Source: an uncultured delta proteobacterium (lineage in GTDB: Bacteria; Desulfobacterota; DSM-4660; Desulfatiglandales; HGW-15). From it: DNA of 64,000 nucleotides. Below, one piece after another: positions 3,643 through 55,036 of the stretch (positions within the stretch are counted from its first letter, which is position 1; the number at the start of each line of letters is the position of its first letter). Under the pieces are notes generated by a model. It searched no databases. It was not told where the DNA came from and saw only the letters and a list, made by a program, of their open reading frames with translations. Location of the stretch: positions 320,034-384,033 of the forward strand of contig CAVPDE010000016.1 of the NCBI GenBank assembly GCA_963702565.1. The letters are read 5' to 3'. A program made the position numbers and the translations under genes.

Positions 3643-4545
3643 TTACTGACGTCCAATGGCTACGTGCGTGTTCCCCTGGGACAAGCGAGCCGCTGGGACT
3701 TCCTCACTCCGTCGCGCGCTGATAATGGAAACCACTGTCACTATAAGAATGATGATGCCGCCGCCTATAAGCGCATTAATGCCCGGGGTTTCTCCTATCG
3801 CGAAGAACACCCATACGGGATTAAACACAGGCTCGATGACTGCGATCAGGTTCGCTTGAACCGCGGAAACGCGTTTAATCGCGATGGAAAATAAAATCGC
3901 CGACAGGCCGATTTGAACAACGCCCAACACCGCGATTGCGGCGAGCGATTTCGCTGTCACCTGCGGCAATGGAAGAAAAAACGATAAGGCGATACAGATC
4001 CCGGCTGTGAGCCAATGGGACAGAAGAATCGATTCGAGCGGAGAACCGTCTTTTTGCATGCGCATAAACACGAAATAAAAGCTAAACGTTATAGCCGACA
4101 TGAACGCAAGGACATTGCCAAGCAACTTCCCGCCCCCGAGTTCATCAAAAAACATAAAAATCATACCTGCAGCGACGAGAGGCAATGCCATGACATGTTC
4201 CACACGAGCGCGCTCCTTAAGCAAAATAGCGCCGATAAAGACGGTCGACACCGGTGCGAAATATTGCAGGATAATGGCGTTAGCCGCAGTCGTGGTTTTA
4301 TTGGCCGAGACAAACAAAAGCATGGTGGCAGCATTGGCTATGGCCGCGGCAATCTGCGGCAATGAAAGATGAATCTTGGGATGCTTCAAATAAATGAAAA
4401 TAAGTATGGATGCGATGAGACTGCGACTACCAGCTATCGCTATGGGATTCCAATCGATTACTTTTATGAACAATCCTGCGATGCTCCAGAGGAACGCCGT
4501 GGCTGCCATTGCAAGAATGCCCATGCTTTTGCTAACATTTTCCAT
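3643..4545 (-). CDS. EamA/DMT superfamily transporter
   Basis: 300 aa with about 10 hydrophobic helices in a two-half repeat architecture typical of EamA. Confidence 0.8.
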   Translation of the reverse strand: MENVSKSMGILAMAATAFLWSIAGLFIKVIDWNPIAIAGSRSLIASILIFIYLKHPKIHLSLPQIAAAIANAATMLLFVSANKTTTAANAIILQYFAPVSTVFIGAILLKERARVEHVMALPLVAAGMIFMFFDELGGGKLLGNVLAFMSAITFSFYFVFMRMQKDGSPLESILLSHWLTAGICIALSFFLPLPQVTAKSLAAIAVLGVVQIGLSAILFSIAIKRVSAVQANLIAVIEPVFNPVWVFFAIGETPGINALIGGGIIILIVTVVSIISARRSEEVPAARLSQGNTHVAIGRQ

Positions 4546-4604
4546 TTAGTGTCCCAAACCTATTCTCCGGTCCTCCTTCTCCCCGGTCCCCTATTTGACC
4601 GACG

Positions 4605-5129
4605 TCACTCAAAATGGAATTGCACGGTGATTCTGCATTCTTCACCCTTGAACTTGAGACAGCGCCTGAGATCCGGAGTTCGAGTATATCGGAGCCCCAT
4701 CGCATCGAACCATCCCTCGATCCTCTCGAAGATCCCGCACTCATACTCGGAAAGGAGTCCAAGCTTCTTCATCCCGTTATAAGCGAAGCACTCTGAGATC
4801 CTAAAAACCTGCACGCTGTTACCCGGGTAATCGATTTGAATGGCGATGAACTCCGGCACGAAAACCCCTTTCCCAAGTTCAAACAATTCGCGGTATGCTG
4901 TAAAGTTCTTCGGGGGCAGGGCGTCGGCTGCGTTCATCAACCGCTTGAATTCAATCCGGCCCAGCTTTCTGCACACCCGGAGATTCATGGGGCTTGCCTC
5001 GGCCATGCCGAGCTTTGCCGCCACTTCGGCGTACCAAAGGGCGTCGTGGGTTAGCCAGTTTCTCAGCAGCATGTCTTTCAGCTGATTTTGATTTATTGCG
5101 AGTGCTGCCACCGTTTGTCCTATGTACAT
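4605..5129 (-). CDS. hypothetical protein
   Basis: 174-aa ORF with good coding appearance. It has a Cys pair near the C-terminus. No family was confidently recognised. Confidence 0.5.
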   Translation of the reverse strand: MYIGQTVAALAINQNQLKDMLLRNWLTHDALWYAEVAAKLGMAEASPMNLRVCRKLGRIEFKRLMNAADALPPKNFTAYRELFELGKGVFVPEFIAIQIDYPGNSVQVFRISECFAYNGMKKLGLLSEYECGIFERIEGWFDAMGLRYTRTPDLRRCLKFKGEECRITVQFHFE

Positions 5130-6316: not shown

Positions 6317-8059
6317 ATGGATAAGATTTTGAGGATCAACATGGGCGCAGCTGGCGGACCTAAAGCAACGGTAACCCCTGTCGGAGCCTATGCCGGGCTC
6401 GGCGGAAGAGCGATGACTTCCGGGATCGTTTCCAAGGAAGTGCCTCCTCTGTGTCATCCTCTTGGTGAGGACAACAAACTCGTCATAGCCCCGGGCATGC
6501 TGAGCGGAACAACGGCGGCCATGTCGGGCAGGCTTTCAGTGGGCTGCAAGAGCCCTCTCACAGGAGGCATCAAGGAAGCCAACGCTGGAGGCCAGCCCTC
6601 GCAGATGCTCGCAAGGCTCGGCTATGCCGCAATCGTTTTGGAGGGTAAGCCCAAAGAAGGCGCCCTCTACAAAGTGCTCATCAACAAGGACGGGGTGAAG
6701 ATCACCTCCGCCGACAATCTCAAGATGCTGGGCAACTACGACACGGTCGAAAAAATCAAGGCTGAATTCGGTGAGAAGATCGGCGTGATCTCCATCGGGC
6801 CTGCCGGTGAAATGAAGCTGGCCGCGGCTTCCATTGCCTGCACGGACATGGAACTCCGGCCCACACGGCATGCCGGCCGGGGCGGCGTGGGCGCGGTCAT
6901 GGGCAGCAAGGGCGTCAAGGCGATCGTGATCGACGATGCAGGGGCCAAGATGCGAAGCCCCAAGGACCCTGAAGCCTTCAAAGATGCCACGAAAAGATGG
7001 GTGGAAGGACTTCGAAAGCATCCGGTCACGGGTCAGGGCCTTCCTGCGTACGGGACCAACGTGCTCACCAACGTGATCAACGAGGCCGGTGGCTATCCCA
7101 CCAAGAACTTCATGTGGGGCCGATTCGACACCTGCTCCAAGATCAGCGGGGAAACCCAGGCAGCCCTGGAAAATCAGAGAGGCGGCGAGGGTTCCGCCAC
7201 CCATGGCTGCCACCGCGGCTGCATCATCCGCTGCTCTGGAACCTTTTACAACAAGGATGGCCAGTATCTCACCAAGCAACCCGAGTATGAGACCGTCTGG
7301 GCTCACGGCGGGAACTGCGGTATTGACGACCTGGATTCCATCGCCATGCTGGACCGCCTGGACGACGACTTCGGCGTGGATACGATCGAAATGGGAGCGA
7401 CCATCGGGGTAGCCATGGAAGCCGGATTGGCCAAGTTTGGCGATGCAAAGGCGGCCATCAACCTGGTCAAAGAAGTGGGCAAAGGCACTCCCCTCGGCAG
7501 GATTCTGGGAAGCGGTGCCGCTGTCACAGGCAAGGTGTTCGGAGTTGAGAGAGTTCCGGTGGTCAAAGGACAATCCATGCCTGCCTATGATCCCCGCGGG
7601 GTGCAGGGCATTGGCGTCACCTATGCCACAACCACTATGGGCGCGGATCACACCGCAGGATACGCAGTGGCCACCAACATCCTCGGCGTAGGAGGCAAGG
7701 TCGATCCTCTCAAGCCTGAAGGCCAGGTGGAGCTTTCGCGGAACCTTCAGATTACCACCGCAGCAGTAGATTCCACTGGCATGTGCCTGTTCATCGCGTT
7801 TGCAGCCATGGATCAGCCTGAGACCTTCCAGGCTCTCATTGACACCATCAACGCCTTCTACGGTTTGAAGCTCACGGGCAATGACGTGACTGAACTGGGG
7901 AAATCCGTCCTGAAGAAGGAAAGGGATTTCAACGCGGCGGCAGGGTTCACGTCAAAGCACGACCGTCTGCCCGACTTCTTTAAGAAAGAACCGCTTCCGC
8001 CTCACAACATCACCTTTAAAGTGACGGATAAGGATCTGGACTCAGTGTTCAACTGGTAG
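6317..8059 (+). CDS. aor: tungsten-type aldehyde:ferredoxin oxidoreductase family protein (AOR-1)
   Basis: 580 aa. N-terminal MDKILRINMG..., internal CHRGCIIRC cluster region and TTTMGADHTAGY pterin-binding region, all typical of the AOR family. GGAGG RBS is present. Confidence 0.9.
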   Translation: MDKILRINMGAAGGPKATVTPVGAYAGLGGRAMTSGIVSKEVPPLCHPLGEDNKLVIAPGMLSGTTAAMSGRLSVGCKSPLTGGIKEANAGGQPSQMLARLGYAAIVLEGKPKEGALYKVLINKDGVKITSADNLKMLGNYDTVEKIKAEFGEKIGVISIGPAGEMKLAAASIACTDMELRPTRHAGRGGVGAVMGSKGVKAIVIDDAGAKMRSPKDPEAFKDATKRWVEGLRKHPVTGQGLPAYGTNVLTNVINEAGGYPTKNFMWGRFDTCSKISGETQAALENQRGGEGSATHGCHRGCIIRCSGTFYNKDGQYLTKQPEYETVWAHGGNCGIDDLDSIAMLDRLDDDFGVDTIEMGATIGVAMEAGLAKFGDAKAAINLVKEVGKGTPLGRILGSGAAVTGKVFGVERVPVVKGQSMPAYDPRGVQGIGVTYATTTMGADHTAGYAVATNILGVGGKVDPLKPEGQVELSRNLQITTAAVDSTGMCLFIAFAAMDQPETFQALIDTINAFYGLKLTGNDVTELGKSVLKKERDFNAAAGFTSKHDRLPDFFKKEPLPPHNITFKVTDKDLDSVFNW

Positions 8060-29994: not shown

Positions 29995-30945
29995 CTATTT
30001 CCCTTTTTGCTTCACTTCGTAGCCCTTGAAAAACCTCAACAGCTCCGAATCCGTGGAAAGCACGAGAGAAGTGCTTTTGTCCATGGTGTCCTTGTAAATG
30101 TCGAGAGTTTGAATAAAGGAGTAGAACTCCGGATCTTTCCCCAAGGCCCGGGCATAAATGAGAGTCGCCTCGGCGTCGGCCTTTCCGCTGAGCTCTTGCG
30201 CCGTCCTGTAAGCCCCGGACTCGATCTCTTTCAGGTCCTTTTCCATGTCGCCCTCGATTTTCCGCGCCTCCCCCTTGCCTTCGGAACGAAATTTCTCGGC
30301 GATTTGCTTCCTCTCCGCGATCATTCGGCCATAGACCGTTTTCTGCACCTCTTCCACATAGTTCAGCATCTTGAACTTCACATCCACGAGCTCGATGCCG
30401 AATTCCCTGAGCTTGGGTTGGGCCTGTTCGAGAATGCCTTTGGTAATATTGCTTCTTCCGAACTTTACTTCACCCAGCGGGCTCGTATCCTTTACCACCT
30501 CCACGCCTACTTCGGCAACATCGAGTTCACGGTTGGTCATCCTCACCGTTTCGATCAGGGGGTAGGAGGTGACGAAATTCCGAACTGCGGAATCGATGAT
30601 ATCGTCAAGACGGCCCAAAGCGCTTGTCATGTTGTTGACGGTCTGGAAGAACTTGAGGGGATCCACGATCTTCCAACGGGCAAAGGTATCCACCAGGATA
30701 AACGTCTTGTCCAGGGTAGGCACCTCCCCGCGATCCCCATCCCACGCCTGGAGATTCTTGGGAAAGTAGTTGGCCTGCTGAATCATCGGGATCTTGAAAT
30801 AAAGGCCGGGCGTGATCTTGGCATCACCCACCGCTTTACCGAACTGGGTGAGGACCACCTGCTCGGTTTCATCGACCACATAGGCCGAACTGAAAACGGC
30901 AATCAGAATAATCGCAACAAGGACGAGTAACCCTTTAGATTTCAT
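29995..30945 (-). CDS. hflC: protease modulator HflC (SPFH/band-7)
   Basis: N-terminal TM plus SPFH domain. It has a 4-nt overlap with upstream hflK. Confidence 0.85.
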   Translation of the reverse strand: MKSKGLLVLVAIILIAVFSSAYVVDETEQVVLTQFGKAVGDAKITPGLYFKIPMIQQANYFPKNLQAWDGDRGEVPTLDKTFILVDTFARWKIVDPLKFFQTVNNMTSALGRLDDIIDSAVRNFVTSYPLIETVRMTNRELDVAEVGVEVVKDTSPLGEVKFGRSNITKGILEQAQPKLREFGIELVDVKFKMLNYVEEVQKTVYGRMIAERKQIAEKFRSEGKGEARKIEGDMEKDLKEIESGAYRTAQELSGKADAEATLIYARALGKDPEFYSFIQTLDIYKDTMDKSTSLVLSTDSELLRFFKGYEVKQKGK

Positions 30946-44576: not shown

Positions 44577-45960
44577 CGCCGAGAGGGATCCTATTGGAGG
44601 AACTTTGGATCTCAGAAAGATTGTCTTATGGATTGGTTTCGCATTTGTCTTGGGCCTCCTGGGCGTCGTGGGATGGTTCGTCGCATTTGTGTATGAGGGC
44701 GAAGCCCCTTCTGCGAGCCTCCAACCTCTTCCCGAGTACATTTCCAAGGCTCAGAAGTTCACGGTCACAGCAGAGGACAAAAAGCGGGGGCTCAGAGCCG
44801 TCAAACTCTCCATCACTCAAGGAGGCAAAGAGACGGTTCTCCTGGACGAGAAGTTCCCCTACCAAGGGATTCTCAACCGCGACGGGGTTCATCAGGTGAA
44901 GAAAGATATCTCCATTGATCCTACAGCGCTGAAACTCGTCCAGGGCGAGTTCAACATCACCCTCCGGGTGTGGGATCATTCAAGGAGAGGAGAGGGAAAT
45001 CCTGCCGGCCTTGAGCACAAGAGCATCGTGGACACGGTTCCCCCGTCGCTTCGCGCGGTCAGCCGCATGCACAACGTGAATGTGGGCGGGGTCGGGTTCG
45101 CGGTCTATCAAACTTCCCGGGATGCGGCTTCGAGCGGTGTGTTCGTCGATGAGCTTTTCTTCCCCGGTTACCCGGATAAGGATCAGAGGGAAAAAGGAAT
45201 TCACCACTGCTACTTCGCAATCCCTTATGACAACACAGCGAATCCCAAAATCAACCTGTGGGCCAAGGACCAGGCAGGAAATGAGGCGAGAACTTCTTTT
45301 TATTATCACGTGATCCGAAAGAAGTTCCGCGAGGACAAAATGGAAATTTCGGACCGCTTCCTCCAAAACCTTCTCCCTTACTTCTCCTTTTACCCCCTCG
45401 AGTCCGAGGAGAGCGACATCAGGAAATTTCTCAAGATCAATACCGAGCTGCGCCGCGAAAACCACAACACCCTCTCTCAACTGAAAGACCAAACCAGCCC
45501 GGAGAGACTCTGGGACGGGGTGTGGCTCTCTCACTGGAACGGCCAGACCATGGCCCGATTTGCCGATCATCGGGTTTACCTTTATAAGGGACAGAGAGTG
45601 GACGACAAGTTCCATCTCGGCGTCGATCTCGCATCCCTCAGCAACGCTCCGGTGCTTGCGTCAAACAACGGAAAGGTCCTCTTTGCCGACAGGCTCGGAA
45701 TCTACGGGCTTGCCGTGGTCATCGATCACGGGCAGGGGCTTGCCTCGGTTTACGGGCATTTGAGCAAGATCGAAGTGAGCCCGGGACAAGCCGTAAACAA
45801 AGGAGAGGTCATTGGTCTGACCGGTGACACCGGACTTGCAGGCGGAGACCATCTTCATTTTTCCGTCATGCTCCAGGGAATTTTCGTGAACCCTGTCGAG
45901 TGGTGGGACCGGCACTGGATCATGGACAATGTGACCAAGAAACTTTCATTGGTCGAATGA
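44527..45960 (+). CDS. M23 (LytM-domain) peptidase; 5' end uncertain
   Basis: C-terminal HLGVDLA...GDTGLAGGDHLHFSV zinc motif. The annotated N-terminus overlaps the repeat, so the true start is probably a TTG/GTG near 44600. Confidence 0.8.
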   Translation: MFDPLCLCAFVPLCLPLAERDPIGGTLDLRKIVLWIGFAFVLGLLGVVGWFVAFVYEGEAPSASLQPLPEYISKAQKFTVTAEDKKRGLRAVKLSITQGGKETVLLDEKFPYQGILNRDGVHQVKKDISIDPTALKLVQGEFNITLRVWDHSRRGEGNPAGLEHKSIVDTVPPSLRAVSRMHNVNVGGVGFAVYQTSRDAASSGVFVDELFFPGYPDKDQREKGIHHCYFAIPYDNTANPKINLWAKDQAGNEARTSFYYHVIRKKFREDKMEISDRFLQNLLPYFSFYPLESEESDIRKFLKINTELRRENHNTLSQLKDQTSPERLWDGVWLSHWNGQTMARFADHRVYLYKGQRVDDKFHLGVDLASLSNAPVLASNNGKVLFADRLGIYGLAVVIDHGQGLASVYGHLSKIEVSPGQAVNKGEVIGLTGDTGLAGGDHLHFSVMLQGIFVNPVEWWDRHWIMDNVTKKLSLVE

Positions 45961-46610
45961 CCTCCATCATGGTTCTTACCCTGGAAGATATCATAGGATA
46001 TGCGAAGGAATGCTTCGCTGCCGCTCGCAACAGCCACGGCTGGGATCACACGGAGCGGGTCTACAGACTGTGCATGCACATCGGACAGGTGGAGGGGGCT
46101 GATCTGGAGGTTCTCGCCGCAGCGGCTTATCTCCATGATGTGGGGCGATCTTACCAAGACGAATCAAAGGGTGCGATCTGTCATGCGGCGAAGGGAGCGC
46201 AGATCGCCAGTACCCTGCTGGCGAGCTATCCCCTTTCCGACGAAAAAAAACGGGCCATCGTCCACTGTATCGAATCCCACAGGTTTCGCGGCATTCACGC
46301 GCCCGAATCCCTGGAAGCCAGAACCCTTTTTGACGCGGACAAGCTCGATTCCATCGGCGCCATCGGTATCGGCAGAGCTTTTCTGTTTGCCGGAGAGGTA
46401 GGAGCCAAGCTCCACAATCCTGAAGCGGACCTCCACAACACCCGGCCCTACACCGAAGAGGACACGGGGTACAGGGAGTTCAAACTCAAGCTCTCCAACA
46501 TCAAAGACCGGATGCTCACTGCCGAAGGAAGGCGCATCGCCGAGGAGCGTCACGCGTTCATGGAAGGATTCTTTCAAAGGCTCCAGGAGGAGTATGAAGG
46601 AAGGAAATGA
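45957..46610 (+). CDS. HD-domain phosphohydrolase
   Basis: HGWDHTERV and YLHDVGR motifs. ATGA overlap with the M23 gene stop. Confidence 0.75.
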   Translation: MTSIMVLTLEDIIGYAKECFAAARNSHGWDHTERVYRLCMHIGQVEGADLEVLAAAAYLHDVGRSYQDESKGAICHAAKGAQIASTLLASYPLSDEKKRAIVHCIESHRFRGIHAPESLEARTLFDADKLDSIGAIGIGRAFLFAGEVGAKLHNPEADLHNTRPYTEEDTGYREFKLKLSNIKDRMLTAEGRRIAEERHAFMEGFFQRLQEEYEGRK

Positions 46611-46634: not shown

Positions 46635-47414
46635 TTATCCCATAGGGCCGACGCGCTGTCGTTCGATTCTGAGGTCGATGGCCCGGGCAGCGTCCACCGC
46701 ATACTGCGAGACCAGCTTCATTCTCTCTTCGTCAAGGCTTGCCTTGAGCCCCACGACCCAAATGGCCGACATGAGGGGTTCAGCCTTTTTGATCGGGGCT
46801 GCAACCGCCCTGACTCCCATGATGTATTCCTCATCATCCGTGGCAAAGCCGTTCTCTCTGGCCGCCCGGATCTCCTGAAGATAGCGCTCGGTGCTGGTGA
46901 TGGAATTCTCCGTAAACCGAGTGAGCCCCTTGGTCTTGATGATCCGCCTGACCTCTTCCTCATCCATTTTTGAAAGAAAGACCTTGCCCACGGCGCCTGC
47001 CAGCAGCGGCAGGGTCGTTCCGATCGGCGCTGTGATCTTAAGCTCAGTCCTGGGATCCACCACGTCCAAGACAGTGACGTGATCCCAGTTCAGGACTCCA
47101 AGGAAGACCGACGCGCTGGTCCTTTCCATCAGCTCCTCAGCCACAGGTCTTGCAAGGTCTTTGAGGTCTATCTGCGAATAGGCTTTCTTGCCCAGTTCGA
47201 AGAGCGTGAACCCGAGGGTGTACCGCTTTGTCACAGGATCCCTCAAGACCACGCCCACCTCTTCCAGGGCAGAGGTCATCCCGTGGACCGTGCTTTTGGC
47301 AATGCCCAGGCCCCTCGCAATCTCGCTGATTCCCACTCCGTCCTTGCTCGTGGAAATAAGCTTCAGAATTTCGAAGGCTCTCTTAACCGATGGGGCAAAG
47401 TATCCTTTACTCAT
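46635..47414 (-). CDS. IclR-family transcriptional regulator
   Basis: N-terminal wHTH (AFEILKLIS...GISEIARGLGIAKSTVHGM) and a C-terminal IclR effector domain. Confidence 0.85.
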   Translation of the reverse strand: MSKGYFAPSVKRAFEILKLISTSKDGVGISEIARGLGIAKSTVHGMTSALEEVGVVLRDPVTKRYTLGFTLFELGKKAYSQIDLKDLARPVAEELMERTSASVFLGVLNWDHVTVLDVVDPRTELKITAPIGTTLPLLAGAVGKVFLSKMDEEEVRRIIKTKGLTRFTENSITSTERYLQEIRAARENGFATDDEEYIMGVRAVAAPIKKAEPLMSAIWVVGLKASLDEERMKLVSQYAVDAARAIDLRIERQRVGPMG

Positions 47415-47415
47415 T

Positions 47416-47431
47416 GTTCACCATATTGAAC
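47416..47431. promoter_or_regulatory. operator palindrome site 1 (GTTCA-N6-TGAAC)
   Basis: gttcaccatattgaac, immediately upstream of the iclR start codon. Confidence 0.6.
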
Positions 47432-47540
47432 TGCTCAATGAGTTTACAGATATCCGGAGGCTCCTGTCAACAGGATTCTGGTTTTGCAATGGGGTCGTGG
47501 TTCGAACATATCGATCGTCTTTGTTAGAACGATTTTCTCC

Positions 47541-47568
47541 TTGACAAAAAACAACCTCCCGATATCAT
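47541..47568 (+). promoter_or_regulatory. putative sigma70 promoter of the membrane FeS gene
   Basis: TTGACA 47541-47546, 16-nt spacer, TATCAT 47563-47568. Confidence 0.5.
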
Positions 47569-47581
47569 AGACGCCATTGCT

Positions 47582-47597
47582 GTTCATTTACATGAAC
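47582..47597. promoter_or_regulatory. operator palindrome site 2
   Basis: gttcatttacatgaac, 14 nt downstream of the -10 candidate. Confidence 0.6.
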
Positions 47598-47634
47598 TCC
47601 GCTTTGTTTGGTTGACCAATGGCAGGAGGCCAGT

Positions 47635-48654
47635 ATGGATTTAAGCCTATTTGCAGAGGGCCCTCTACTCTGGATCGTGTTTTTGCTGTTTCTTGCCGGT
47701 GTGACTGCCAGGCTCGTCTTCTTCGGAATCAAGATTCTCACCAACCCTAAAGGAGACCAGACACGATGGGGATTTAGCGTGCCCATCTTCGGCCGCTTTC
47801 TTCTGCCCTTTCACAAGGCGATTGCCAAGAAGCCCCTTTACGCGGTCATCCGTTACCTCTTTCACCTCTGCCTTTTCATCGTACCCATCTGGCTCGGCGG
47901 CCATATCAGCCTGTGGGAGGAATCCAGGCTCGGCTGGGCCTGGTCTTCTATCCCTGACAAGCTCGCTGACTGGATGACCCTCCTGGTGATCATCCTTGCT
48001 GCGTTTTTTCTGGCTCGGAGGCTCGTTTGGCCCGAGGCGCGAACTGGAACATCTTGGACGGATTTCCTCGTCATTGTCATTGCAGGACTTCCTTTTCTCA
48101 CCGGCTGGTTTCTGACTCACGGCACCTTGGATAAAGTCGCTTTTTTAGGGGACAACATGCGGCTGATCCACGTTCTGAGCGGGGAAGCCATGATCCTCAT
48201 GGCGGTCTTCCTCTTTTGCAGAACCAGGATGAATCCCAGCCGGTGCACGGGGTGCGCTGCCTGCGAGATCAGCTGCCCCACGGGCACACTCGAATCCCGG
48301 GACAAAGGCGCTTTCAGGATTTTCAATTACTCCCACTATCAGTGCATCTGCTGCGGGGCCTGCGTGAATACCTGCCCGGAAAATGCAGCCGAGCTCAGGC
48401 ACGACATCAGTCCGCGAAAATTCTTCCAGATCCTCTCCAAGCAGGAGATCCGCGCGGTTGAGATGAAGCCCTGCCAAAAATGCGGCGCCCTGTTTATGCC
48501 CGAGCCGCTTTTCACCAAAATCAGCAAGACCTTTGCAGACGACTATCTCCACCTCTGCCCGAACTGCAGAAAAGCAAATGTGGTGGAGCTTTATCGCCGC
48601 ATGGCGCCGTGGATCAAGAAACAGGGCGCGCCAGCCCAAAGCAAGAAATCATGA
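47635..48654 (+). CDS. NarI/DsrM-like polytopic membrane protein fused to a 2x[4Fe-4S] ferredoxin domain and a C-terminal CxxC...CxxC ribbon
   Basis: ATG 47635 follows GGCAGGAGG. There are about 5 TM helices with conserved His (FHLCLF, GGHISLW, LIHVLSG), then CTGCAACEISCP, CICCGACVNTCP, CQKCG...CPNC. Confidence 0.7.
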   Translation: MDLSLFAEGPLLWIVFLLFLAGVTARLVFFGIKILTNPKGDQTRWGFSVPIFGRFLLPFHKAIAKKPLYAVIRYLFHLCLFIVPIWLGGHISLWEESRLGWAWSSIPDKLADWMTLLVIILAAFFLARRLVWPEARTGTSWTDFLVIVIAGLPFLTGWFLTHGTLDKVAFLGDNMRLIHVLSGEAMILMAVFLFCRTRMNPSRCTGCAACEISCPTGTLESRDKGAFRIFNYSHYQCICCGACVNTCPENAAELRHDISPRKFFQILSKQEIRAVEMKPCQKCGALFMPEPLFTKISKTFADDYLHLCPNCRKANVVELYRRMAPWIKKQGAPAQSKKS

Positions 48655-48659
48655 CAATC

Positions 48660-48675
48660 GTTCATCATATTGAAC
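48660..48675. promoter_or_regulatory. operator palindrome site 3
   Basis: gttcatcatattgaac, 5 nt after the stop of the membrane FeS gene. Confidence 0.6.
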
Positions 48676-48775
48676 GATTTTGGAAGCAGCTTTCCGCTTT
48701 AGCGGTTTGGTCAAAATAGCCATAAGACGGGCATAAATACAGCAAGCGCATTTTATCAGTGCTATGATTTTTCCC

Positions 48776-48804
48776 TTGACAAGGGAGAGCATTCTGGTTA
48801 CATT
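48776..48804 (+). promoter_or_regulatory. putative sigma70 promoter of the zinc-ribbon/AOR-2 operon
   Basis: TTGACA 48776-48781, 17-nt spacer, TACATT 48799-48804. Confidence 0.5.
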
Positions 48805-48814
48805 CGCCAGGGTT

Positions 48815-48830
48815 GTTCATGATAATGAAC
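48815..48830. promoter_or_regulatory. operator palindrome site 4
   Basis: gttcatgataatgaac, 10 nt downstream of the -10 candidate. Confidence 0.6.
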
Positions 48831-48933
48831 TGCCGGATATGCCAGCTTCCGGTTGTTGAAATTGAAATTCTTCCCGAGTTGGTAACCATCAAAATGATTT
48901 CTGCCGCATGTAGAGATCAGAAAGGAGAGCGTC

Positions 48934-49206
48934 ATGGTTGATGAAAAAGATAACCTCTCGACAGCGGAGAGCTTGCGCGCAACCAGAACCTACGGCAAAT
49001 TCCGATGTCACAATCCCACTTGCATGGAAAGACTCGAGCCGAAGAAGGGGGACAAGACCATCAAGTGCCCGACGTGCGGAATGGAATTCCGCGTGGCGTG
49101 GGTCAAAGATGGACTCCCCAGAATCAGGGGACCGGTCTGGGAAGTGAACAGAAAAATTGCCGAAGCGGAATTAGCCAGAAAGATGAAGGCGAAGGAGGGG
49201 AAGTGA
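48934..49206 (+). CDS. small zinc-ribbon protein, translationally coupled to AOR-2
   Basis: 90 aa. CHNPTC...CPTCG, with a Lys-rich C-terminal helix. AAAGGAGAG RBS. The stop lies 1 nt before the AOR-2 ATG. Confidence 0.6.
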   Translation: MVDEKDNLSTAESLRATRTYGKFRCHNPTCMERLEPKKGDKTIKCPTCGMEFRVAWVKDGLPRIRGPVWEVNRKIAEAELARKMKAKEGK

Positions 49207-49207
49207 C

Positions 49208-51149
49208 ATGCCGTTAGACAGTAAAATTGCTTATATCGATCTTACCACAGGAGACATCCAGATAAAACCCATTCCTCTCGATGTGAGAAAGAAGTTCCTC
49301 GGAGGCAGAGGGCTGGATGCATACCTTCTTTACAACAACACCAAGAAGGGCTGTGATCCCATCGGGCCGGACAACGCGCTCATGGTGAGCGGTGGGCTTC
49401 TGTGTGCCACCTGCGCCTCTGCGACAGCCAGGACCCACGTGATGGCAAAGTCCCCCCTGACCGGACTCTTGGGCAGCTGCAACATGGGCGGATTCTTTGC
49501 CCCTGAAATGACCTGGGCCGGGTTTAATCACCTGGTGATCAAAGGCAAGGCCAAGCATCCCGTGTACCTCTACATCCACAACGGCGAAATCGAAATTCGC
49601 GACGCTCGCGACATCTGGGGCCGGAGCGTCACCGAAGCCCAGTGGGCCATCCGGGACGACCTCGGCGACCAGGAAGTCAAGAGCATGGTCTGCGGTCCTG
49701 CGGGCGAGAACCTGGTCCGATACGCCAATGTGATGACGGGAATCAAGAATGCGGGCGGAAGGACGGGCATGGGTTGTGTCATGGGCTCCAAGAACCTCAA
49801 AGCCGTGGCCGCCAGAGGGACCATGGACGTCAAAATCGCCCATCCGGTCGAGGCCCTTGAATTCAACAAGCGCTTTATCGAGCAGATCACTAGCGCTAAA
49901 GTCAACCAGACCCAGGGAGCCATCGGAACCCCCTTCATCTGGGGCGCCACCAACTCCTGGGGCGGAATCCGGAACAGGAACTTCCAGTACAACCAGTGCG
50001 AGTATGCGGACGACATGGAACCCGAGCATCTCGACGAAATCGCAACGGAAACCATCGGACCTTACCACATGACCGGGTGTTTCGGGTGCCAGGTGCACTG
50101 TCGGGCACAGTACAAGATTCCTTTCGGCCCCTACGCCGGGAAGTACGATGAAGGTCCGGAGTACACCTCCCAGGGCGCATTCGGCGGAGAGACCGACACC
50201 CCGAGAGCCATCACGGTTCTGACAGGAAACCATCTTGTGGACCAGTACGGGGTGGATAACCTGGAGATAGGAAGCCTTATTTCGTGGGCCATGGAACTCT
50301 ATGAACTGGGGATTATCACCAACAAAGAGACCGACGGCCTGGATCTCCGGTGGGGGAACGATGATGCAGTGCTTGAAATGATCCACCGCATCTGCCAGAG
50401 GAAGGGATGGCTTGGAGACACCTTGGCCGACGGCGGCGTTGCCGCCTCCAAGAAGATCGGCAAGAACTCCTTCAGCTACCTCATCCAGGTCAAAGGCATG
50501 AGCAACCTCCATTCCGATGAGCGGGCGACCCCGGGGCTGGCCCTGAACATTGCCCTGTCCTCAAGGGGTTCCGACCACCTGCGGAGCAGGCCGGCCATCG
50601 ACCTTTACCATCTCCCCGAACCGGTCATGCGGAAGATTTACAGCAGCCCGGTTCCCTACAATGGGCCTCTTGAGCTCCGAGCATACGGAGTACATCGGCA
50701 AACCCTGGCAGGTCTTCTGGCACGAGAACTGTTACATGGCCGTGGACTGCCTCGGGATCTGCAAGTACCACACCACCTTCCTGGGAGCTACCCTCCCTAA
50801 CTTCGAAGACTGGGTCAAGGTCGTTTACTACAACACGGGCCTCCAGTTGACCCCCCAGGAGATCTGGACGATCGCCGAGAGGTGTAACAACATGGAGCGG
50901 CTCTTCAACCTGAGGGAGGGGTTGTCCAAGGATGATCCTGAAAAGGGCGATGTGCTCAACCATCGTTATCACGACGAACCCACAAGGCGCGGGGCGCCGG
51001 ATGTCGTCGGTCGAGTCATTGAAAAGGACAAGTTCATCAAGATGCGCTCTGAGATATACGGGCACAAGGGTTGGGATGAAAACGGAATTCCCAAACCTGA
51101 GACCCTGAAGAGACTCGGCATCGATAACGAGCCATCCCACCTGGTATGA
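49208..51149 (+). pseudogene. aor: tungsten-type aldehyde:ferredoxin oxidoreductase family (AOR-2), interrupted by a +1 frameshift near 50663-50667
   Basis: ORF 49208..50800 carries the N-terminal and central AOR regions up to ...LSSRGSDHLRSRP...SSPVPYNG. The conserved C-terminus (LSSEHTEYIGKPWQVFWHENCYMAVDCLGICKY...) continues in the +1 frame (ORF 50550..51149). It could be a real pseudogene, a sequencing error or recoding. Confidence 0.75.
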
Positions 51150-51171
51150 TGCTTTTGAAAGGAGTCAATCA

Positions 51172-51678
51172 ATGGAACAAATGGGTAAAGTTCTTGTGGT
51201 GAATCAGGAAAAATGCACCGGATGCAGACTTTGCGAGCTGGTCTGTGCGGTGAAGCATGACGGCATCTCGAATCCTGCTCGAAGCCGCATCAAGGTGATG
51301 AAATGGGAGGCTGAGGGGCTCTACATCCCCATGTCCTGCCAGCAGTGCCAGGACGCCCCTTGCACGAATGTCTGCCCTGTGAAAGCGATTTCCAGGGACG
51401 AGGATCTGGCCAGGGTCATGGTGGACTATGACAAGTGCATCGGCTGCCGATCCTGCGTTGCCGTGTGTCCTTTCGGCGCCATGAGCTTCAATGTCATCGA
51501 TCGAAAGGTCTTCAAGTGCGACCTGTGTGACGGCGACCCTCAGTGCGTCCGTTTCTGCGACATGAAAGCCGTGGATTACATGAGCGCCGATGAGGTGAGC
51601 ATCATGAAGAAAAGGGATGCTGCCGCAAGGGTATCCCGGGCAAGCAAAGAGGGCGCAGCCCTCATGGCTCAGCTCTAG
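51172..51678 (+). CDS. 4x[4Fe-4S] polyferredoxin (DmsB/AorA-like electron-transfer subunit)
   Basis: Four Cys clusters are present: CTGCRLCELVC, CQQCQDAPCTNVCP, CIGCRSCVAVCP, CDLCDGDPQCVRFC. GAAAGGAG RBS. Confidence 0.85.
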   Translation: MEQMGKVLVVNQEKCTGCRLCELVCAVKHDGISNPARSRIKVMKWEAEGLYIPMSCQQCQDAPCTNVCPVKAISRDEDLARVMVDYDKCIGCRSCVAVCPFGAMSFNVIDRKVFKCDLCDGDPQCVRFCDMKAVDYMSADEVSIMKKRDAAARVSRASKEGAALMAQL

Positions 51679-51908: not shown

Positions 51909-53339
51909 ATGGGAATAAACAAAATTGAACTCCTTTCTGTCGGCATCGATGTCGGCAGCGCGACAAGTCATTTGGTCTTTTCAAACCTCGTGTTGGTACG
52001 GGACGAGATGTCTCCCACGCTCCGGTTCAATATCGAGGAAAGAAAGGTGATCTATGAAGGCAAGATCATTCACACCCCTCTTCTTGAAGACAAGACGATT
52101 GATATCGATAAACTGACCGCCTTTTTCAAACAAGAATATCAGCATGCCGGGATTGACCCCGCCGACATTCACACGGGCGCGGTGATCATCACCGGAGAGT
52201 CGGCCAAGAAACAAAACGCGCCCCAGATCGCAGAGGCTTTGTCCAAGGATGCAGGGAAGCTCGTGGCAGCTACGGCAGGACCCAATTTCGAGAGTCTCCT
52301 CTCTGCCATGGGATCAGGCGCAACCGCACGATCAAGGGATCATCACAAAACTATTATGTCCTGCGATATCGGCGGCGGCACGTCCAACCTCGCCATCTCA
52401 AGAGAAGGTGAGGTTCTCTCCACCAGCTGCATCGCTGTGGGCGGCCGATTGATGGCCATGGATTCCGAGATAAGAATTCGCCAGCTTGCCGAACCAGCGG
52501 TCAAAGTCATGCAGGCTATCGGTTTGAACTACAGACTTGGGGATCCAATTCCAAAACCGGACATTGAAAAAATCGCGACCAAAATGGCCGAAGTGCTCAT
52601 TGAAGTGATGACGGGCCCTGCGACGTCCCCTTTAGCCAAGGAACTCATGATGACCGGTGATCTGGATTTCTCAACGCCCATCGATGAATACATGTTTTCA
52701 GGAGGCGTGGCCGAGATCATCTACGCCGGGAAGGGCCGCTACAACGATATCGGGAGCATACTTGCAAAGAAGATCCGTTCCCTGGCTTCTGAACTCGGCT
52801 CTCCCGTGGTAGAGCCGATCAACAAGATCAGAGCCACGGTCATCGGAGCAGGCGCTTACTCCCTGTCCGTTTCAGGCTCATCGGGTTTTATGGACGACAA
52901 GCTCAAACTTCCCATCAGGAACATCCCTGTGCTCCGGGTGGACGTGGAATACGCCAAACTGAGCTTGGAACACGTGGTTTCCAGGGTGAACATGGCCTTC
53001 CAGAGGCACGACTTAGTCGAGGGGCAGGAGATCGTCGCCCTGTACTTCAAGGACCCTGTTCGAGTCAACTATCCTGCTTTGGAGTTGTTCGCGAAGTCCA
53101 TGGAGGCGGCCCTCCCCAACGCTATTGCCAAGAAGATGCCGATTATCCTGATCTTTCAGAAAGATATTGCCTGCAGTGTGGGGAATGTCATTCGGCGGGA
53201 AACAGGCTTGCACACCAATCTGCTCTCTCTCGATGAATTGTCCTTGAATGACGGGGATTGGATCGATATCAGCGAACCCTTGGTCGGCCGGCAGGTGTTT
53301 CCGGTTACCGTGAAGTCTCTGGTCTTCCCTGCAACTTAG
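51909..53339 (+). CDS. eutA: EutA-family (ASKHA-fold) reactivating-factor-like ATPase, orphan
   Basis: LLSVGIDVGSATSHLVFS, GAVIITGESAKKQNA, AGPNFESL and DIGGGTSNLA closely parallel E. coli EutA as recalled. Confidence 0.8.
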   Translation: MGINKIELLSVGIDVGSATSHLVFSNLVLVRDEMSPTLRFNIEERKVIYEGKIIHTPLLEDKTIDIDKLTAFFKQEYQHAGIDPADIHTGAVIITGESAKKQNAPQIAEALSKDAGKLVAATAGPNFESLLSAMGSGATARSRDHHKTIMSCDIGGGTSNLAISREGEVLSTSCIAVGGRLMAMDSEIRIRQLAEPAVKVMQAIGLNYRLGDPIPKPDIEKIATKMAEVLIEVMTGPATSPLAKELMMTGDLDFSTPIDEYMFSGGVAEIIYAGKGRYNDIGSILAKKIRSLASELGSPVVEPINKIRATVIGAGAYSLSVSGSSGFMDDKLKLPIRNIPVLRVDVEYAKLSLEHVVSRVNMAFQRHDLVEGQEIVALYFKDPVRVNYPALELFAKSMEAALPNAIAKKMPIILIFQKDIACSVGNVIRRETGLHTNLLSLDELSLNDGDWIDISEPLVGRQVFPVTVKSLVFPAT

Positions 53340-53812
53340 CAGGCAACCTCGGCAGCCTTTTCCAGAGCGACAGCCGCCATCTCTCGCACGTGCTCATCGT
53401 CGGAGATCAGGTAATCTGCGACTCCCTCCTTGAAGGAGGCGGTAAAGAGTTCCAGCCCGTCGAACAGCTCTTCTTTCTCCTCCTTTTCGCGAAGACACAC
53501 GATTTTTGGAAACAGGCTTTCCTTCTTGAACCCTTCCACAAGGACCACGTCACAATCGGAGCAATACCGGAGCATGTCCTTTAGGCTCCTCTCTCCCTTG
53601 ACAATGATTTCCGCTTCCACGGCAGAGGCGGCTGCCACCACCGAGGCAAAGGCCCGGTACCGGGAGGAGTCCGCATCCACAAACTGAAGTTCGCAGGAGA
53701 CGTGCTTCACTACCCCCACACGCAACCCTTTGCTCGCCAGCTCCTTGCAGAGTTTTACCCCGAGCGTCGTCTTACCGCTTTTGTGATACCCGATAATGCC
53801 GACCGCCTTCAC
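53336..53812 (-). CDS. mobB: molybdopterin-guanine dinucleotide biosynthesis adapter protein MobB
   Basis: N-terminal GIIGYHKSGKTTL P-loop and VGVVKH. Confidence 0.85.
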   Translation of the reverse strand: MKAVGIIGYHKSGKTTLGVKLCKELASKGLRVGVVKHVSCELQFVDADSSRYRAFASVVAAASAVEAEIIVKGERSLKDMLRYCSDCDVVLVEGFKKESLFPKIVCLREKEEKEELFDGLELFTASFKEGVADYLISDDEHVREMAAVALEKAAEVAC

Positions 53813-53818
53813 CTGATC

Positions 53819-54091
53819 CTAGCCTCCGGAAAGCATCATGGTGAGGTGAATCTCATCCCCGTCCTTGACCGGCTTGGCGAGCTCGTTGGGATAGGCGCTC
53901 TGGAGATTCAAGTAGATTTCAACGATATTGGAGAGTTTTCCATTCTTGCCAAAAATGGAAGACTCCATTGCAGGATATTTTTTTACCAGGTTCTTCAAGC
54001 ATTCTCCCACGGTCTTCCCGTCCAATTCTACGATTTCCTGACCGTTCGTGAATTGCCGGAGTGTCAAATGAAGATGTACTTTGACAGCCAA
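53819..54091 (-). CDS. MoaD/ThiS-family ubiquitin-like sulfur carrier (copy 2)
   Basis: 90 aa with a TTG start after AAGGAGGG. It ends ...DGDEIHLTMMLSGG (Gly-Gly). Confidence 0.75.
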   Translation of the reverse strand: MAVKVHLHLTLRQFTNGQEIVELDGKTVGECLKNLVKKYPAMESSIFGKNGKLSNIVEIYLNLQSAYPNELAKPVKDGDEIHLTMMLSGG

Positions 54092-54170
54092 TTGTTCTCC
54101 CTCCTTATGCCATCCTCAAGAGTATGCGGCCTGACTCCTTGAAAACACCCGGATACAAGGCGCGCTTTTC

Positions 54171-54236
54171 AGTGACGAGTGACGAGTAACACGTGCCGAG
54201 ATAAAGACATGGAGTTGTTGCTCGTTACTTGTCACT
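54171..54236. repeat. word-repeat hairpin (GTGACGAGT words) between moeB-like and moaD-like genes
   Basis: agtgacgagtgacgagtaac (54171-54190) pairs with gttgctcgttacttgtcact (54217-54236). Confidence 0.7.
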
Positions 54237-54304
54237 TGCCCCTTCCATGTGACGATGAGCGCAACGCCGCTGAAAGGCGTTTTGCAGCATCCTGCCGCAC
54301 TAAA

Positions 54305-55036
54305 TCACAGGTGAGCACAATGCTCACACTCTGGATTTCGCTGCACCTTGAACTCGGTGAACTTCAGGTTCAGCCCGTCGTAGGCCAGCAACCGGTTTGC
54401 AAGAGGGTCTCCGATTCCCACCAGGACCTTGATCACTTCCGTTGCCTGGATGCAGGCGATCACTGCAGGCGTCACTCCGATCACCGGAAATTTCGATTCC
54501 GGCACCGGGCCGCGGTAAAGGCATCTCAAGCAGGCTGTTTTGCCGGGGATCACGGTCATGGCCCGTCCTTCAAAACCGTTGACGGCCCCATGGACAAAGG
54601 GGACCCCCTGGCCGATCGCCGTTTTGTTCAGCACATAGCGGGTGGGTAAATTGTCCATAGCATCGACGATCAGATCAAATCCCGCAGTGAGTTCCGAAGC
54701 ATTCTCCTCCGAAATCGTCACACTCAACGTCTCGACGGTCACATTCGGATTGAGTTTATTAAGCTTCTCCTGGGCCGACTCCACCTTTTGTCTTCCCACG
54801 TCGGCTGTCCAGTGGGCCACCTGTCGATTCAGGTTCGTGAGGTCCACCTTGTCGTGGTCCACGATCCGGAGGTGGCCTACCCCCGCCGCGGTCAGATAGA
54901 TCGAAACAGGGGAACCAAGACCCCCTGCCCCGGCAATGAACACTTTGGCCCTTTTCAGCTTCTCCTGGCCTTTTTCCCCGATTTGAGGGATCATGATCTG
55001 GCGGCCGTATCGTTCAAGCTCTTCACCCGTTAACAT
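54305..55036 (-). CDS. moeB: MoeB/ThiF/HesA-family adenylyltransferase (copy 2)
   Basis: ERYGRQI, FIAGAGGLGS, DHDKVDLTNLNRQ. A C-terminal CLRC...CEHC zinc site is present. Confidence 0.85.
   Translation of the reverse strand: MLTGEELERYGRQIMIPQIGEKGQEKLKRAKVFIAGAGGLGSPVSIYLTAAGVGHLRIVDHDKVDLTNLNRQVAHWTADVGRQKVESAQEKLNKLNPNVTVETLSVTISEENASELTAGFDLIVDAMDNLPTRYVLNKTAIGQGVPFVHGAVNGFEGRAMTVIPGKTACLRCLYRGPVPESKFPVIGVTPAVIACIQATEVIKVLVGIGDPLANRLLAYDGLNLKFTEFKVQRNPECEHCAHL

Follow-up and report, generated by a model that had tools for sequence, protein, structure and literature searches.

Gene content of the locus

A 64,000-nucleotide stretch of DNA from an uncultured delta proteobacterium (Desulfobacterota; Desulfatiglandales; HGW-15), taken from contig CAVPDE010000016.1 of GenBank assembly GCA_963702565.1 (positions 320,034 to 384,033) and hereafter called the window, contains a compact group of genes around AOR-2, an enzyme of the aldehyde oxidoreductase (AOR) family. 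The group consists of a divergently transcribed iclR-family regulator gene, a gene for a membrane protein fused to an iron-sulfur (FeS) domain (the anchor), and a putative operon for a 90-aa zinc-ribbon protein, AOR-2 and a polyferredoxin (Table 1). Coordinates are window positions, and genes were called from the open reading frame (ORF) listing combined with Pfam and NCBIfam domain scans, which recovered all five members of the gene set listed in an earlier note on this DNA. Related loci and contigs used for comparison bear L-numbers (L002, L021 and so on) and relatives of the transmembrane (TM) domain of the anchor bear P-numbers; more than 100 environmental loci carry the module. The best NCBIfam matches of the regulator are BhcR, KdgR and IclR, each under its cut-off, and an iclR orthologue adjoins the module in most related loci. 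The membrane gene starts with an ATG and has AGGAGG upstream. Searches of Pfam, NCBIfam and PDB returned no informative homologue of the zinc-ribbon protein.

Table 1. Genes, promoter-like sites and palindromes of the AOR-2 locus and its downstream genes
Feature	Position	Strand	Description
iclR-family regulator	46635-47414	-	259 aa; PF09339 (HTH_IclR) E 2e-14, PF01614 (IclR_C) E 3e-35; divergent from membrane gene
Operator O1	47416-47431		GTTCACCATATTGAAC; abuts iclR start codon; 3' of minus-strand promoter-like site
iclR promoter-like site	47470-47441	-	-35 at 47470, -10 ends at 47441; consensus scan
Membrane-gene promoter-like site	47541-47568	+	TTGACA, 16 nt, TATCAT; 11/12 matches
Operator O2	47582-47597		GTTCATTTACATGAAC; 0 mismatches; 14 bp past membrane-gene -10
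Membrane anchor/FeS fusion	47635-48654	+	339 aa; five predicted TM helices, then 2x[4Fe-4S], then 4-Cys knuckle
Operator O3	48660-48675		GTTCATCATATTGAAC; 6 bp past membrane-gene stop; 155 bp upstream of O4
Promoter-like site of zinc-ribbon/AOR/polyferredoxin operon	48776-48804	+	TTGACA, 17 nt, TACATT; 10/12 matches
Operator O4	48815-48830		GTTCATGATAATGAAC; 10 bp past -10 of AOR-operon promoter
90-aa zinc-ribbon ORF	48934-49206	+	CxxxxC...CxxC, basic C-terminal tail; stop 1 nt ahead of AOR start
AOR-2 catalytic subunit	49208-51149	+	646 aa if intact; AFOR_N (PF02730) E 9e-72, AFOR_C (PF01314) in two pieces
4x[4Fe-4S] polyferredoxin	51172-51678	+	168 aa, 16 Cys (enough for four clusters); AorA/Wor1S-like
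EutA-like ASKHA ATPase	51909-53339	+	PF06277 E 2e-135; under NCBIfam EutA cut-offs
MobB-, MoaD/ThiS- and MoeB/ThiF-like genes	53336-55036	-	PF03205; ThiS and ThiF Pfam marks on L164; kept downstream of module in related loci

Promoters and palindromic operators

A 16-bp palindrome, GTTCA-N6-TGAAC, occurs in four copies (O1 to O4) in the locus, at three sigma-70-like promoters that belong to iclR, the membrane gene and the AOR operon, and each of these promoter-like sites is followed by a palindrome within 10-14 bp downstream. When GTTCATNNNNATGAAC was searched with at most one mismatch, three matches were found in the 64 kb, all of them within the locus (0.15 expected; none of 100 shuffles reached three). 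The two plus-strand promoters are duplicates of each other including their upstream context, GATTTT(C/T)CCCTTGACAA at 47531 and 48766, each with a TTGACA -35 and four to five of six matches in the -10. Judged by these predicted sites, the membrane gene and the zinc-ribbon/AOR operon have separate promoter-like sites sharing one palindrome. The earlier claim that they are separate transcription units with the same palindromic operator thus fits the separate sites and the palindrome at each of them, which is kept where iclR is present.

The position of O1 is kept in L002-L007, L010, L012, L013, L016, L017, L022 and L023, and a pair of sites of the O3/O4 type, 155-166 bp apart and upstream of the zinc-ribbon gene, is kept in L002, L003, L004, L007, L012 and L013. 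In a footprint comparison, the exact GTTCA-N6-TGAAC recurs at the same four positions, with like spacing (155-170 bp), in loci with an iclR orthologue and is absent from loci without one. Within the 250 bp preceding the membrane gene it is found in 37 of 48 iclR-containing loci versus 1 of 15 loci that lack iclR, and within the 350 bp preceding the zinc-ribbon gene in 44 of 60 iclR-containing loci. With both the HTH_IclR and the IclR_C domain in the regulator and palindromes at its putative target promoters, the locus qualifies as a candidate IclR regulon. A fifth exact GTTCA-N6-TGAAC, GTTCAGCATCTTGAAC, lies outside the locus at 30361-30376, inside overlapping ORFs (29995-30945), and could either have arisen by chance or mark an additional target of IclR.

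The membrane anchor

Residues 5-192 of the anchor match the NCBIfam models of TmcC (NF045723, E 8e-37) and HmcE (NF045716, E 4e-25), and the residues shared with these families include His77, His90, His179, Pro84 and Gly157, among others. The cytoplasmic half contains eight cysteines in two CxxCxxCxxxCP motifs (C204-C214 and C237-C247), followed by the knuckle C280xxC283...C308xxC311; Fer4 domains are all that Pfam recognises in the protein. The fusion family has 981 matches at E <= 0.001, of which the best 120 are nearly all full-length with 57-99% identity, and where these have names they are mostly 'ferredoxin' or 'PFOR delta subunit'. With residues 1-200 as the query, an exhaustive search yielded only 340 clusters (50% identity) among 1.84 billion proteins, comprising proteins of fusion length (about 320-350 aa) and stand-alone, bona fide TmcC/HmcE proteins of about 220 aa.

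The AlphaFold2 (AF2) model of the anchor, built from 121 sequences with a pLDDT (predicted local distance difference test) of 81.7, has five long helices (3-36, 67-96, 108-131, 141-162 and 169-191) followed by an alpha/beta domain; an earlier model from 27 sequences (pLDDT 59) was left unused. In Foldseek, the N-terminal part of the model was matched to NarI chains (1q16_C and others) with a probability of 0.92-1.0, E 0.02-0.09 and TM(target) 0.37-0.49 over 213-226 columns, the C-terminal part to HycF of formate hydrogenlyase (7z0s_F, E 2e-5) and the anchor, weakly, to mycobacterial EtfD (9ojn, E 0.45). A profile search of PDB sequences with the anchor was dominated by ferredoxin matches and did not reach NarI, and more distant relatives of the TM domain do reach the Pfam NarI family (PF02665), P0262 with 25.8 bits at a cut-off of 22.9. 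The model suggests that the anchor is a five-helix bundle of the NarI fold with its N-terminus outside and its C-terminus inside. Two relatives of the TM domain (P0192 and P0267) carry an N-terminal class III cytochrome c (cytochrome c3) domain in a TmcA-TmcC-like fusion, which would place the N-terminus in the periplasm; counted five helices onward, the fused FeS domain would then be cytoplasmic. No periplasmic domain of the fusion family is seen in the AF2 model. Fusion to a 2x[4Fe-4S] domain, as the earlier note had read the sequence, agrees with the Fer4 matches and with the HycF-like fold.

Candidate heme ligands were counted in 104 relatives, namely 42 fusion-length proteins and 62 stand-alone TmcC/HmcE proteins (56 of the latter for the position 18 residues past the TM5 ligand). 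His77 and His90 in TM2 and His179 in TM5 are found in all 42 fusions and in at least 92% of the stand-alone proteins. The fourth NarI-type ligand, equivalent to NarI His205, is a histidine 18 residues past His179 in the segment 'PFTKLSH', present in 51 of 56 stand-alone proteins. Another histidine, His60 in 'PFHK' just ahead of TM2, occurs in the window protein, in every one of its close relatives and in 29 of the 42 fusions overall. Judged by their positions, His90 and His179 would be the ligands of the distal heme and His77 that of the proximal heme, with His60 or alone. NarI-like domains vary in their heme content, with one heme in Mycobacterium smegmatis EtfD and three in Syntrophus aciditrophicus EMO (10.64898/2026.08.18.745454). 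Across the 104 relatives, His60 and the TM5 +18 histidine were observed to be nearly mutually exclusive.

The catalytic core

The best PDB matches of AOR-2 are Pyrococcus furiosus AOR (1aor, 3e-90), the catalytic subunit of WOR1 (9mqx_D, 4e-89) and Aromatoleum AorB (8c0z_A, 1e-71). Its [4Fe-4S] cysteines C291, C294, C298 and C518 are invariant in 102 sequences. Thr243, Glu313, Tyr427 and His448 in P. furiosus numbering are second-shell residues of AOR sensu stricto (PMC12096430); AOR-2 keeps the equivalents of Thr243 and His448 (T241 and H457), two of the four, and by this measure falls outside AOR sensu stricto. Judged by its family domains and cluster cysteines, it is a member of an uncharacterised AOR/WOR clade. 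A BamB-like benzoyl-CoA reductase was considered and rejected, given that AOR-2 lacks the cysteine ligand, that BamB is only its ninth PDB match and that no bamD-I genes are present; the metal-ligand cysteine of YdhV (YdhV Cys336; BamB Cys322) aligns with the segment 'DEGPEY' of AOR-2, which contains no cysteine.

The polyferredoxin resembles Wor1S (9mqx_E, 4e-45) and AorA (8c0z_C, 8e-41), and wherever a locus continues beyond the AOR gene, the polyferredoxin gene follows directly. Neither AOR-2 nor the polyferredoxin has a signal peptide. In AorABC and WOR1 such a polyferredoxin wires the tungsten (W) subunit to a third module, which is an FAD/NAD subunit (AorC) or HydABC-like (PMC12096430). 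No gene for an AorC-type FAD/NAD subunit was found in 44-55 kb of the window, and the only other redox protein in the putative regulon is the membrane protein.

Gene neighbourhoods

Two sets of loci were compared, an anchor-centred set with one genome per species (29 loci, 40-85% identity, 27 of them informative) and an AOR-centred set of 80 metagenome loci (at least 81% identity, 63 informative). The pair of AOR and polyferredoxin genes stands beside the fusion gene in 24 of the 27 informative species-level loci, in several gene orders, and the co-occurrence of fusion and AOR that the earlier note had asked to be checked is thereby borne out. With Memb, ZnR and Fd for the anchor, zinc-ribbon and polyferredoxin genes, these orders are Memb-ZnR-AOR-Fd, (ZnR-)AOR-Fd-Memb with gaps of 31-88 bp, Memb/EutA/IclR/ZnR-AOR-Fd and one divergent arrangement. 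The neighbouring AORs belong to four clades, with identities to AOR-2 of 98-76% (clade A), 62-58% (clade B), 37% and 32%, and the zinc-ribbon gene lies directly upstream of the clade-A AOR genes in all cases. The metagenome-assembled genomes (MAGs) with anchor loci are labelled Desulfobacteraceae, Syntrophobacterales, Fischerbacteria, Aminicenantes, Clostridia and Pseudomonadota. In L023, iclR and the anchor gene stand beside an AOR remnant of 49 residues.

In the AOR-centred set, ZnR-AOR-Fd is present wherever the contig reaches far enough, and the anchor is present in 45 of the 63 informative loci. L161 (2397-7452) and L162 carry the same AOR clade (82% identity in L161) and no membrane gene; upstream they have genes for a 906-aa GltD/NfnB-like flavoprotein, a 564-aa HdrA-like FAD/FeS protein and a 164-aa HdrC-like FeS protein, which may form an alternative, soluble electron-output module. 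The anchor is thus nearly always found with an AOR and the AOR not always with an anchor, which fits an optional electron-output module.

Two further arrangements were noticed among these loci. L119 (7244-9264) and also L140 contain a second mini-module in which paralogues of IclR (43%) and of the polyferredoxin (59%) are accompanied by a soluble 149-aa protein, which in L119 is a stand-alone copy of the cytoplasmic Fer4 and CxxC domain of the anchor. The first 2 kb of L110, L125, L126, L128 and L131 hold a second, clade-B pair of AOR and polyferredoxin genes (55-59% identity) about 4 kb upstream of iclR, so that in loci of this type the membrane gene is flanked by two AOR-polyferredoxin pairs.

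Comparison with known systems

A core of W-pterin subunit and 4x[4Fe-4S] polyferredoxin is shared with AorABC of Aromatoleum aromaticum (8c0z) and with the AOR of Moorella thermoacetica, and as in AorABC, MoaD-like maturation genes are close by. Unlike AorABC, the module has no AorC, on which ground identity with AorABC was rejected; it contains, instead or in addition, a membrane cytochrome-b-like/FeS protein, the zinc-ribbon protein and a EutA-like ATPase, and its catalytic subunit differs in two second-shell residues. WOR1 (Wor1LS with a HydABC-like part; 9mqx, 'electron-bifurcating tungstopyranopterin aldehyde oxidoreductase') has subunits that rank first or close to first among the structural relatives of the two core proteins. 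In both cases an AOR-polyferredoxin protomer would be plugged into an exchangeable electron-output module, which in WOR1 is a soluble NADH/ferredoxin flavoprotein and here is predicted to be membrane-integral.

In its overall plan, a pterin subunit, an FeS subunit with four clusters and a cytochrome b anchor of five helices in N-out/C-in topology (predicted here), the module resembles NarGHI, although the catalytic and FeS subunits are not homologous (AOR versus DMSO-reductase family). Moreover, the anchor has two extra fused clusters and no equivalent of NarI His205, and the electrons would probably run in the opposite direction. The nearest sequence family of the TM domain is TmcC/HmcE, from the TmcABCD and HmcABCDEF complexes of sulfate reducers, from which the anchor differs by its fused Fer4 domain and by the deletion of the 'PFTKLSH' segment with the fourth histidine. 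A Tmc or Hmc complex proper was rejected on account of the scores below cut-off and the absence of a multiheme cytochrome c and of an HdrD-like (CCG) TmcB/HmcF partner in 44-55 kb or in the related loci examined.

EMO and EtfD (9ojn; S. aciditrophicus EMO) likewise combine a NarI-like five-helix domain and cytoplasmic [4Fe-4S] clusters in one chain. The donor here would be the polyferredoxin-AOR, not ETF, and the TM domain is of the TmcC branch; membership of the EMO/EtfD group was rejected, as the anchor has no CCG/non-cubane (HdrD-like) domain and ends in a 4-Cys knuckle. In the RefSeq annotation, Escherichia coli ydhYVWXUT likewise joins polyferredoxins and a putative cytochrome b of the membrane to an AOR-family enzyme, YdhY being 30% identical to the polyferredoxin and YdhV 24% identical to AOR-2. 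However, YdhU is a cytochrome b of the PF01292 (HyaC/FdnI) type unrelated to the anchor, with no hhalign match between YdhU and the anchor family, and YdhV has a cysteine metal ligand. The ydh system is itself uncharacterised.

A possible electron route to the membrane pool

From the gene content, the protein families, the predicted fold and topology and the conserved neighbourhood and palindromes, we infer the subunit contacts, heme number, acceptor, direction, substrate and repression of a scheme that is put forward with moderate confidence. The module may encode a three-part, NarGHI-like oxidoreductase under IclR control, in which a cytoplasmic AOR-family enzyme would deliver electrons over the polyferredoxin and the membrane anchor to a membrane pool. 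AOR-2, a W or molybdenum pterin enzyme of the cytoplasm, would oxidise an aldehyde or a related carbonyl compound. The electrons would pass from its own [4Fe-4S] cluster to the four clusters of the AorA-like polyferredoxin, then to the two clusters of the HycF-like cytoplasmic domain fused to the C-terminus of the anchor, and finally over heme b of the TmcC/HmcE-type TM domain to the membrane pool, for which menaquinone is the likeliest candidate. The role that AorC has in Aromatoleum AOR, and the HydABC-like module in WOR1, would here fall to the membrane protein. A repressor of the IclR type would bind GTTCA-N6-TGAAC just 3' of the iclR, membrane-gene and AOR-operon promoters, and an effector would switch on all three together. 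EMO and EtfD, whose heme content varies and in which electrons of a donor in the cytoplasm reach (methyl)menaquinone over cytoplasmic FeS domains and a NarI-like TM domain (10.64898/2026.08.18.745454; PMC13083937), provide a precedent for a NarI-like domain fused to FeS domains that carries electrons from a cytoplasmic donor to menaquinone. By analogy, the anchor may work like EMO.

Aldehyde/acid couples lie at about -580 mV and menaquinone at about -74 mV, so that aldehyde oxidation with quinone would be strongly downhill and acid reduction by menaquinol is not credible. The earlier note had left both directions open: the family and fold of the anchor and the gene neighbourhood would fit a quinone-linked output, whereas the acid reduction part is thermodynamically implausible. 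Measured against the grounds for refutation set out in that note, the idea stands, and it is supported in part.

Several observations weigh against this scheme, beginning with the anchor. Its TmcC score is 127 bits against an equivalog cut-off of 240, and its HmcE score is likewise under the cut-off, which makes it a relative of TmcC/HmcE and not an orthologue. The description of the protein as NarI/DsrM-like survives at the level of the fold and of the TmcC/HmcE models, but the TM part has no Pfam NarI (PF02665) match, and hhalign of the family profile against E. coli NarI (a single sequence) gave a probability of 13% and aligned only TM3-loop-TM4 (the 'RRxxxxxxR...D' motif). Missing conservation of heme-ligand histidines was named beforehand as a ground for abandoning the idea; three of the four positions turned out to be invariant, but the fourth is lost in the fusion family, where the 'PFTKLSH' segment is deleted and a histidine is present in only 2 of 42 proteins, that of the window not among them. 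Since the His205 equivalent is missing, the proximal heme may be absent or differently ligated. In the AOR-2 clade, Thr320 replaces Glu313 and Ser436 replaces Tyr427, both invariant in 96 clade-A and 3 clade-B sequences (with His435 preceding Ser436 in 94 of the 96), and the substrate therefore need not be a simple aldehyde. Feeding electrons of about -0.5 V into menaquinone would also waste much energy, an odd design.

The neighbourhood has its exceptions, too. In L021, an anchor orthologue of 59% identity (4063-5070) stands by genes for SelB, a response regulator, an MTHFR-like protein and a NuoG-type formate-dehydrogenase-like protein, with no AOR within 4 kb upstream or 10 kb downstream, and no AOR is present in L020 in the available 9.5 kb upstream and 0.9 kb downstream of the anchor. 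Conversely, the anchor is absent nearby in 18 of the 63 AOR loci, and for eight of these the upstream sequence covers 4.5 kb or more. Control of the module by IclR, as proposed earlier, is supported by the palindromes kept in iclR-carrying loci, but in the Memb/EutA/IclR/ZnR-AOR sub-lineage the membrane gene has its own promoter region and no palindrome, so that shared regulation appears common, not universal.

In the window itself, AOR-2 is split into two overlapping ORFs (49208-50800 and 50550-51149) by a single extra T at 50668, which the earlier note does not mention. The extra T is missing from the 98%-identical L002 and from all eight near-identical contigs, which carry an identical polyferredoxin, and L169 is identical to the window over 1.9 kb save for it. 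L002 and L165-L168 have an uninterrupted AOR-2, the reading frame of all relatives continues to 646 aa, and no record of the frameshifted 530-aa product was found anywhere. Because the eight near-identical contigs lack it, the extra T is probably an assembly error, the other option being a private mutation, and the gene appears to be intact in the population; an assembly error would hint at further indel errors in the same contig. Programmed frameshifting was rejected, as all relatives are in frame and an otherwise identical contig does not have the extra T.

Alternative explanations

The reaction could run the other way, as in a quinol-oxidising respiratory reductase: menaquinol would be oxidised on the periplasmic side of the anchor, electrons would run inward over the FeS clusters to the pterin enzyme, this enzyme would reduce a substrate of fairly high potential, and a redox loop would conserve energy. 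To our knowledge, the characterised NarI-family anchors other than EMO/EtfD (NarI, HdrE and DsrM) all oxidise quinol or methanophenazine and carry electrons inward. The EMO loop is said to be able to run forward (10.64898/2026.08.18.745454), the distal bis-His pair His90/His179 is intact, and the invariable loss of Glu313 and Tyr427, residues tied to aldehyde oxidation, makes another reaction of the AOR clade possible. This reversal is nevertheless held to be unlikely, in that the known reductions by AOR-family enzymes (acid at about -580 mV, benzoyl-CoA at about -620 to -650 mV) lie far under menaquinol (-74 mV), the AOR family is not known to include an enzyme whose acceptor substrate has a high potential, and the clade, in which Thr243 and His448 are retained, has its best alignment with AOR sensu stricto.

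There is an equally small chance that the coupling is indirect and that the fusion is a free-standing ferredoxin/polyferredoxin:menaquinone oxidoreductase, which would re-oxidise the low-potential carrier of the AOR with no stable AOR-anchor complex. An anchor that is optional for the AOR clade, that forms a separate predicted transcription unit in the window and that occurs in L021 by formate-dehydrogenase-like genes would suit such an enzyme. Tight AOR-Fd-Memb operon arrangements with 31-88 bp gaps are, however, found in L011, L014, L025, L027 and L028, the association holds across four AOR clades and always includes the polyferredoxin, and no separate small ferredoxin gene is found in the module.

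Another conceivable role of the anchor is that of a transmembrane wire, exporting AOR electrons to a periplasmic c3 pool, hydrogenases or formate dehydrogenases in syntrophy or extracellular electron transfer. Complexes of the TmcC/HmcE family, the closest family of the anchor, link periplasmic multiheme cytochromes with the cytoplasm, and some TM-domain relatives carry a fused cytochrome c3 domain. Neither in the window nor in the related loci examined is there a cytochrome c gene in or next to the module, though, and the fusion family lacks a periplasmic domain, which leaves this role quite improbable.

Inherited synteny with no functional link, with palindromes that regulate only iclR and the AOR operon, would accord with the many loci from related Desulfobacterota MAGs and with the arrangement in which the anchor gene has no palindrome, but is very hard to credit. 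The adjacency persists through at least three rearrangements, it is found in MAGs labelled Fischerbacteria, Aminicenantes, Clostridia and Pseudomonadota and with AORs of as little as 32% identity, and O2, which lies after the -10 and ahead of the anchor's start codon, is kept in most iclR-containing loci.

Accessory genes and other features of the window

The EutA-like ATPase gene travels with the AOR module in dozens of loci, the majority of those related to the window, either 3' of the polyferredoxin gene or beside iclR. Its product has only three cysteines, no eutBC genes are nearby, and a role in reactivating or chaperoning the pterin enzyme is conceivable. The MobB-, MoaD- and MoeB-like genes probably serve the maturation of the pterin cofactor. 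An Rfam scan of 46-56 kb found no riboswitch, including no Moco/Wco riboswitch. On the other side of the module, a gene for an HD-domain protein (45900-46610) is convergent with iclR and kept in closer relatives (L002, L004, L005, L016, L084, L090-L094 and others). A second AOR-family gene of the window, AOR-1 (6317-8059, 580 aa), is about 26% identical to AOR-2.

Implications

In a 2025 review of tungsten enzymes, the acceptors of AOR-type enzymes are ferredoxin or NAD+ only, the quaternary types are homodimers or monomers, AorABC and the WOR1/HydABC-like complex, and no membrane-bound form is mentioned (PMC12096430). A search of the full-text literature found no earlier description of an AOR paired with a TmcC/HmcE-type membrane anchor or with menaquinone. 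The locus thus appears to bring known parts, namely an AOR-polyferredoxin core, a NarI-superfamily anchor and IclR control, into an undescribed combination that is well supported by comparative genomics. More tentatively, it may represent the first membrane-anchored member of the AOR/WOR family: a NarGHI-like complex built independently from AOR- and TmcC-family parts and leading directly from a carbonyl-oxidising W enzyme of the cytoplasm to menaquinone, with a proximal heme rewired by the use of His60 for the TM5 histidine and a substrate other than simple aldehydes.

If this is true, a membrane, probably quinone-linked, output would be a fourth AOR type, and anaerobes would have a direct link from carbonyl oxidation at very low potential to their respiratory chain. 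The view of the AOR-polyferredoxin protomer as a plug-in unit for different electron sinks would be broadened as well, and the anchor, with 339 aa and a relocated histidine, adds a compact case to the NarI-like domains whose heme sets vary. Uncultured sediment Desulfobacterota widely carry the module, and the mis-annotation of the anchor as 'ferredoxin' or 'PFOR delta subunit' causes metabolic reconstructions of these organisms to miss it. The conserved operator and the IclR regulator offer a route to the inducing substrate.

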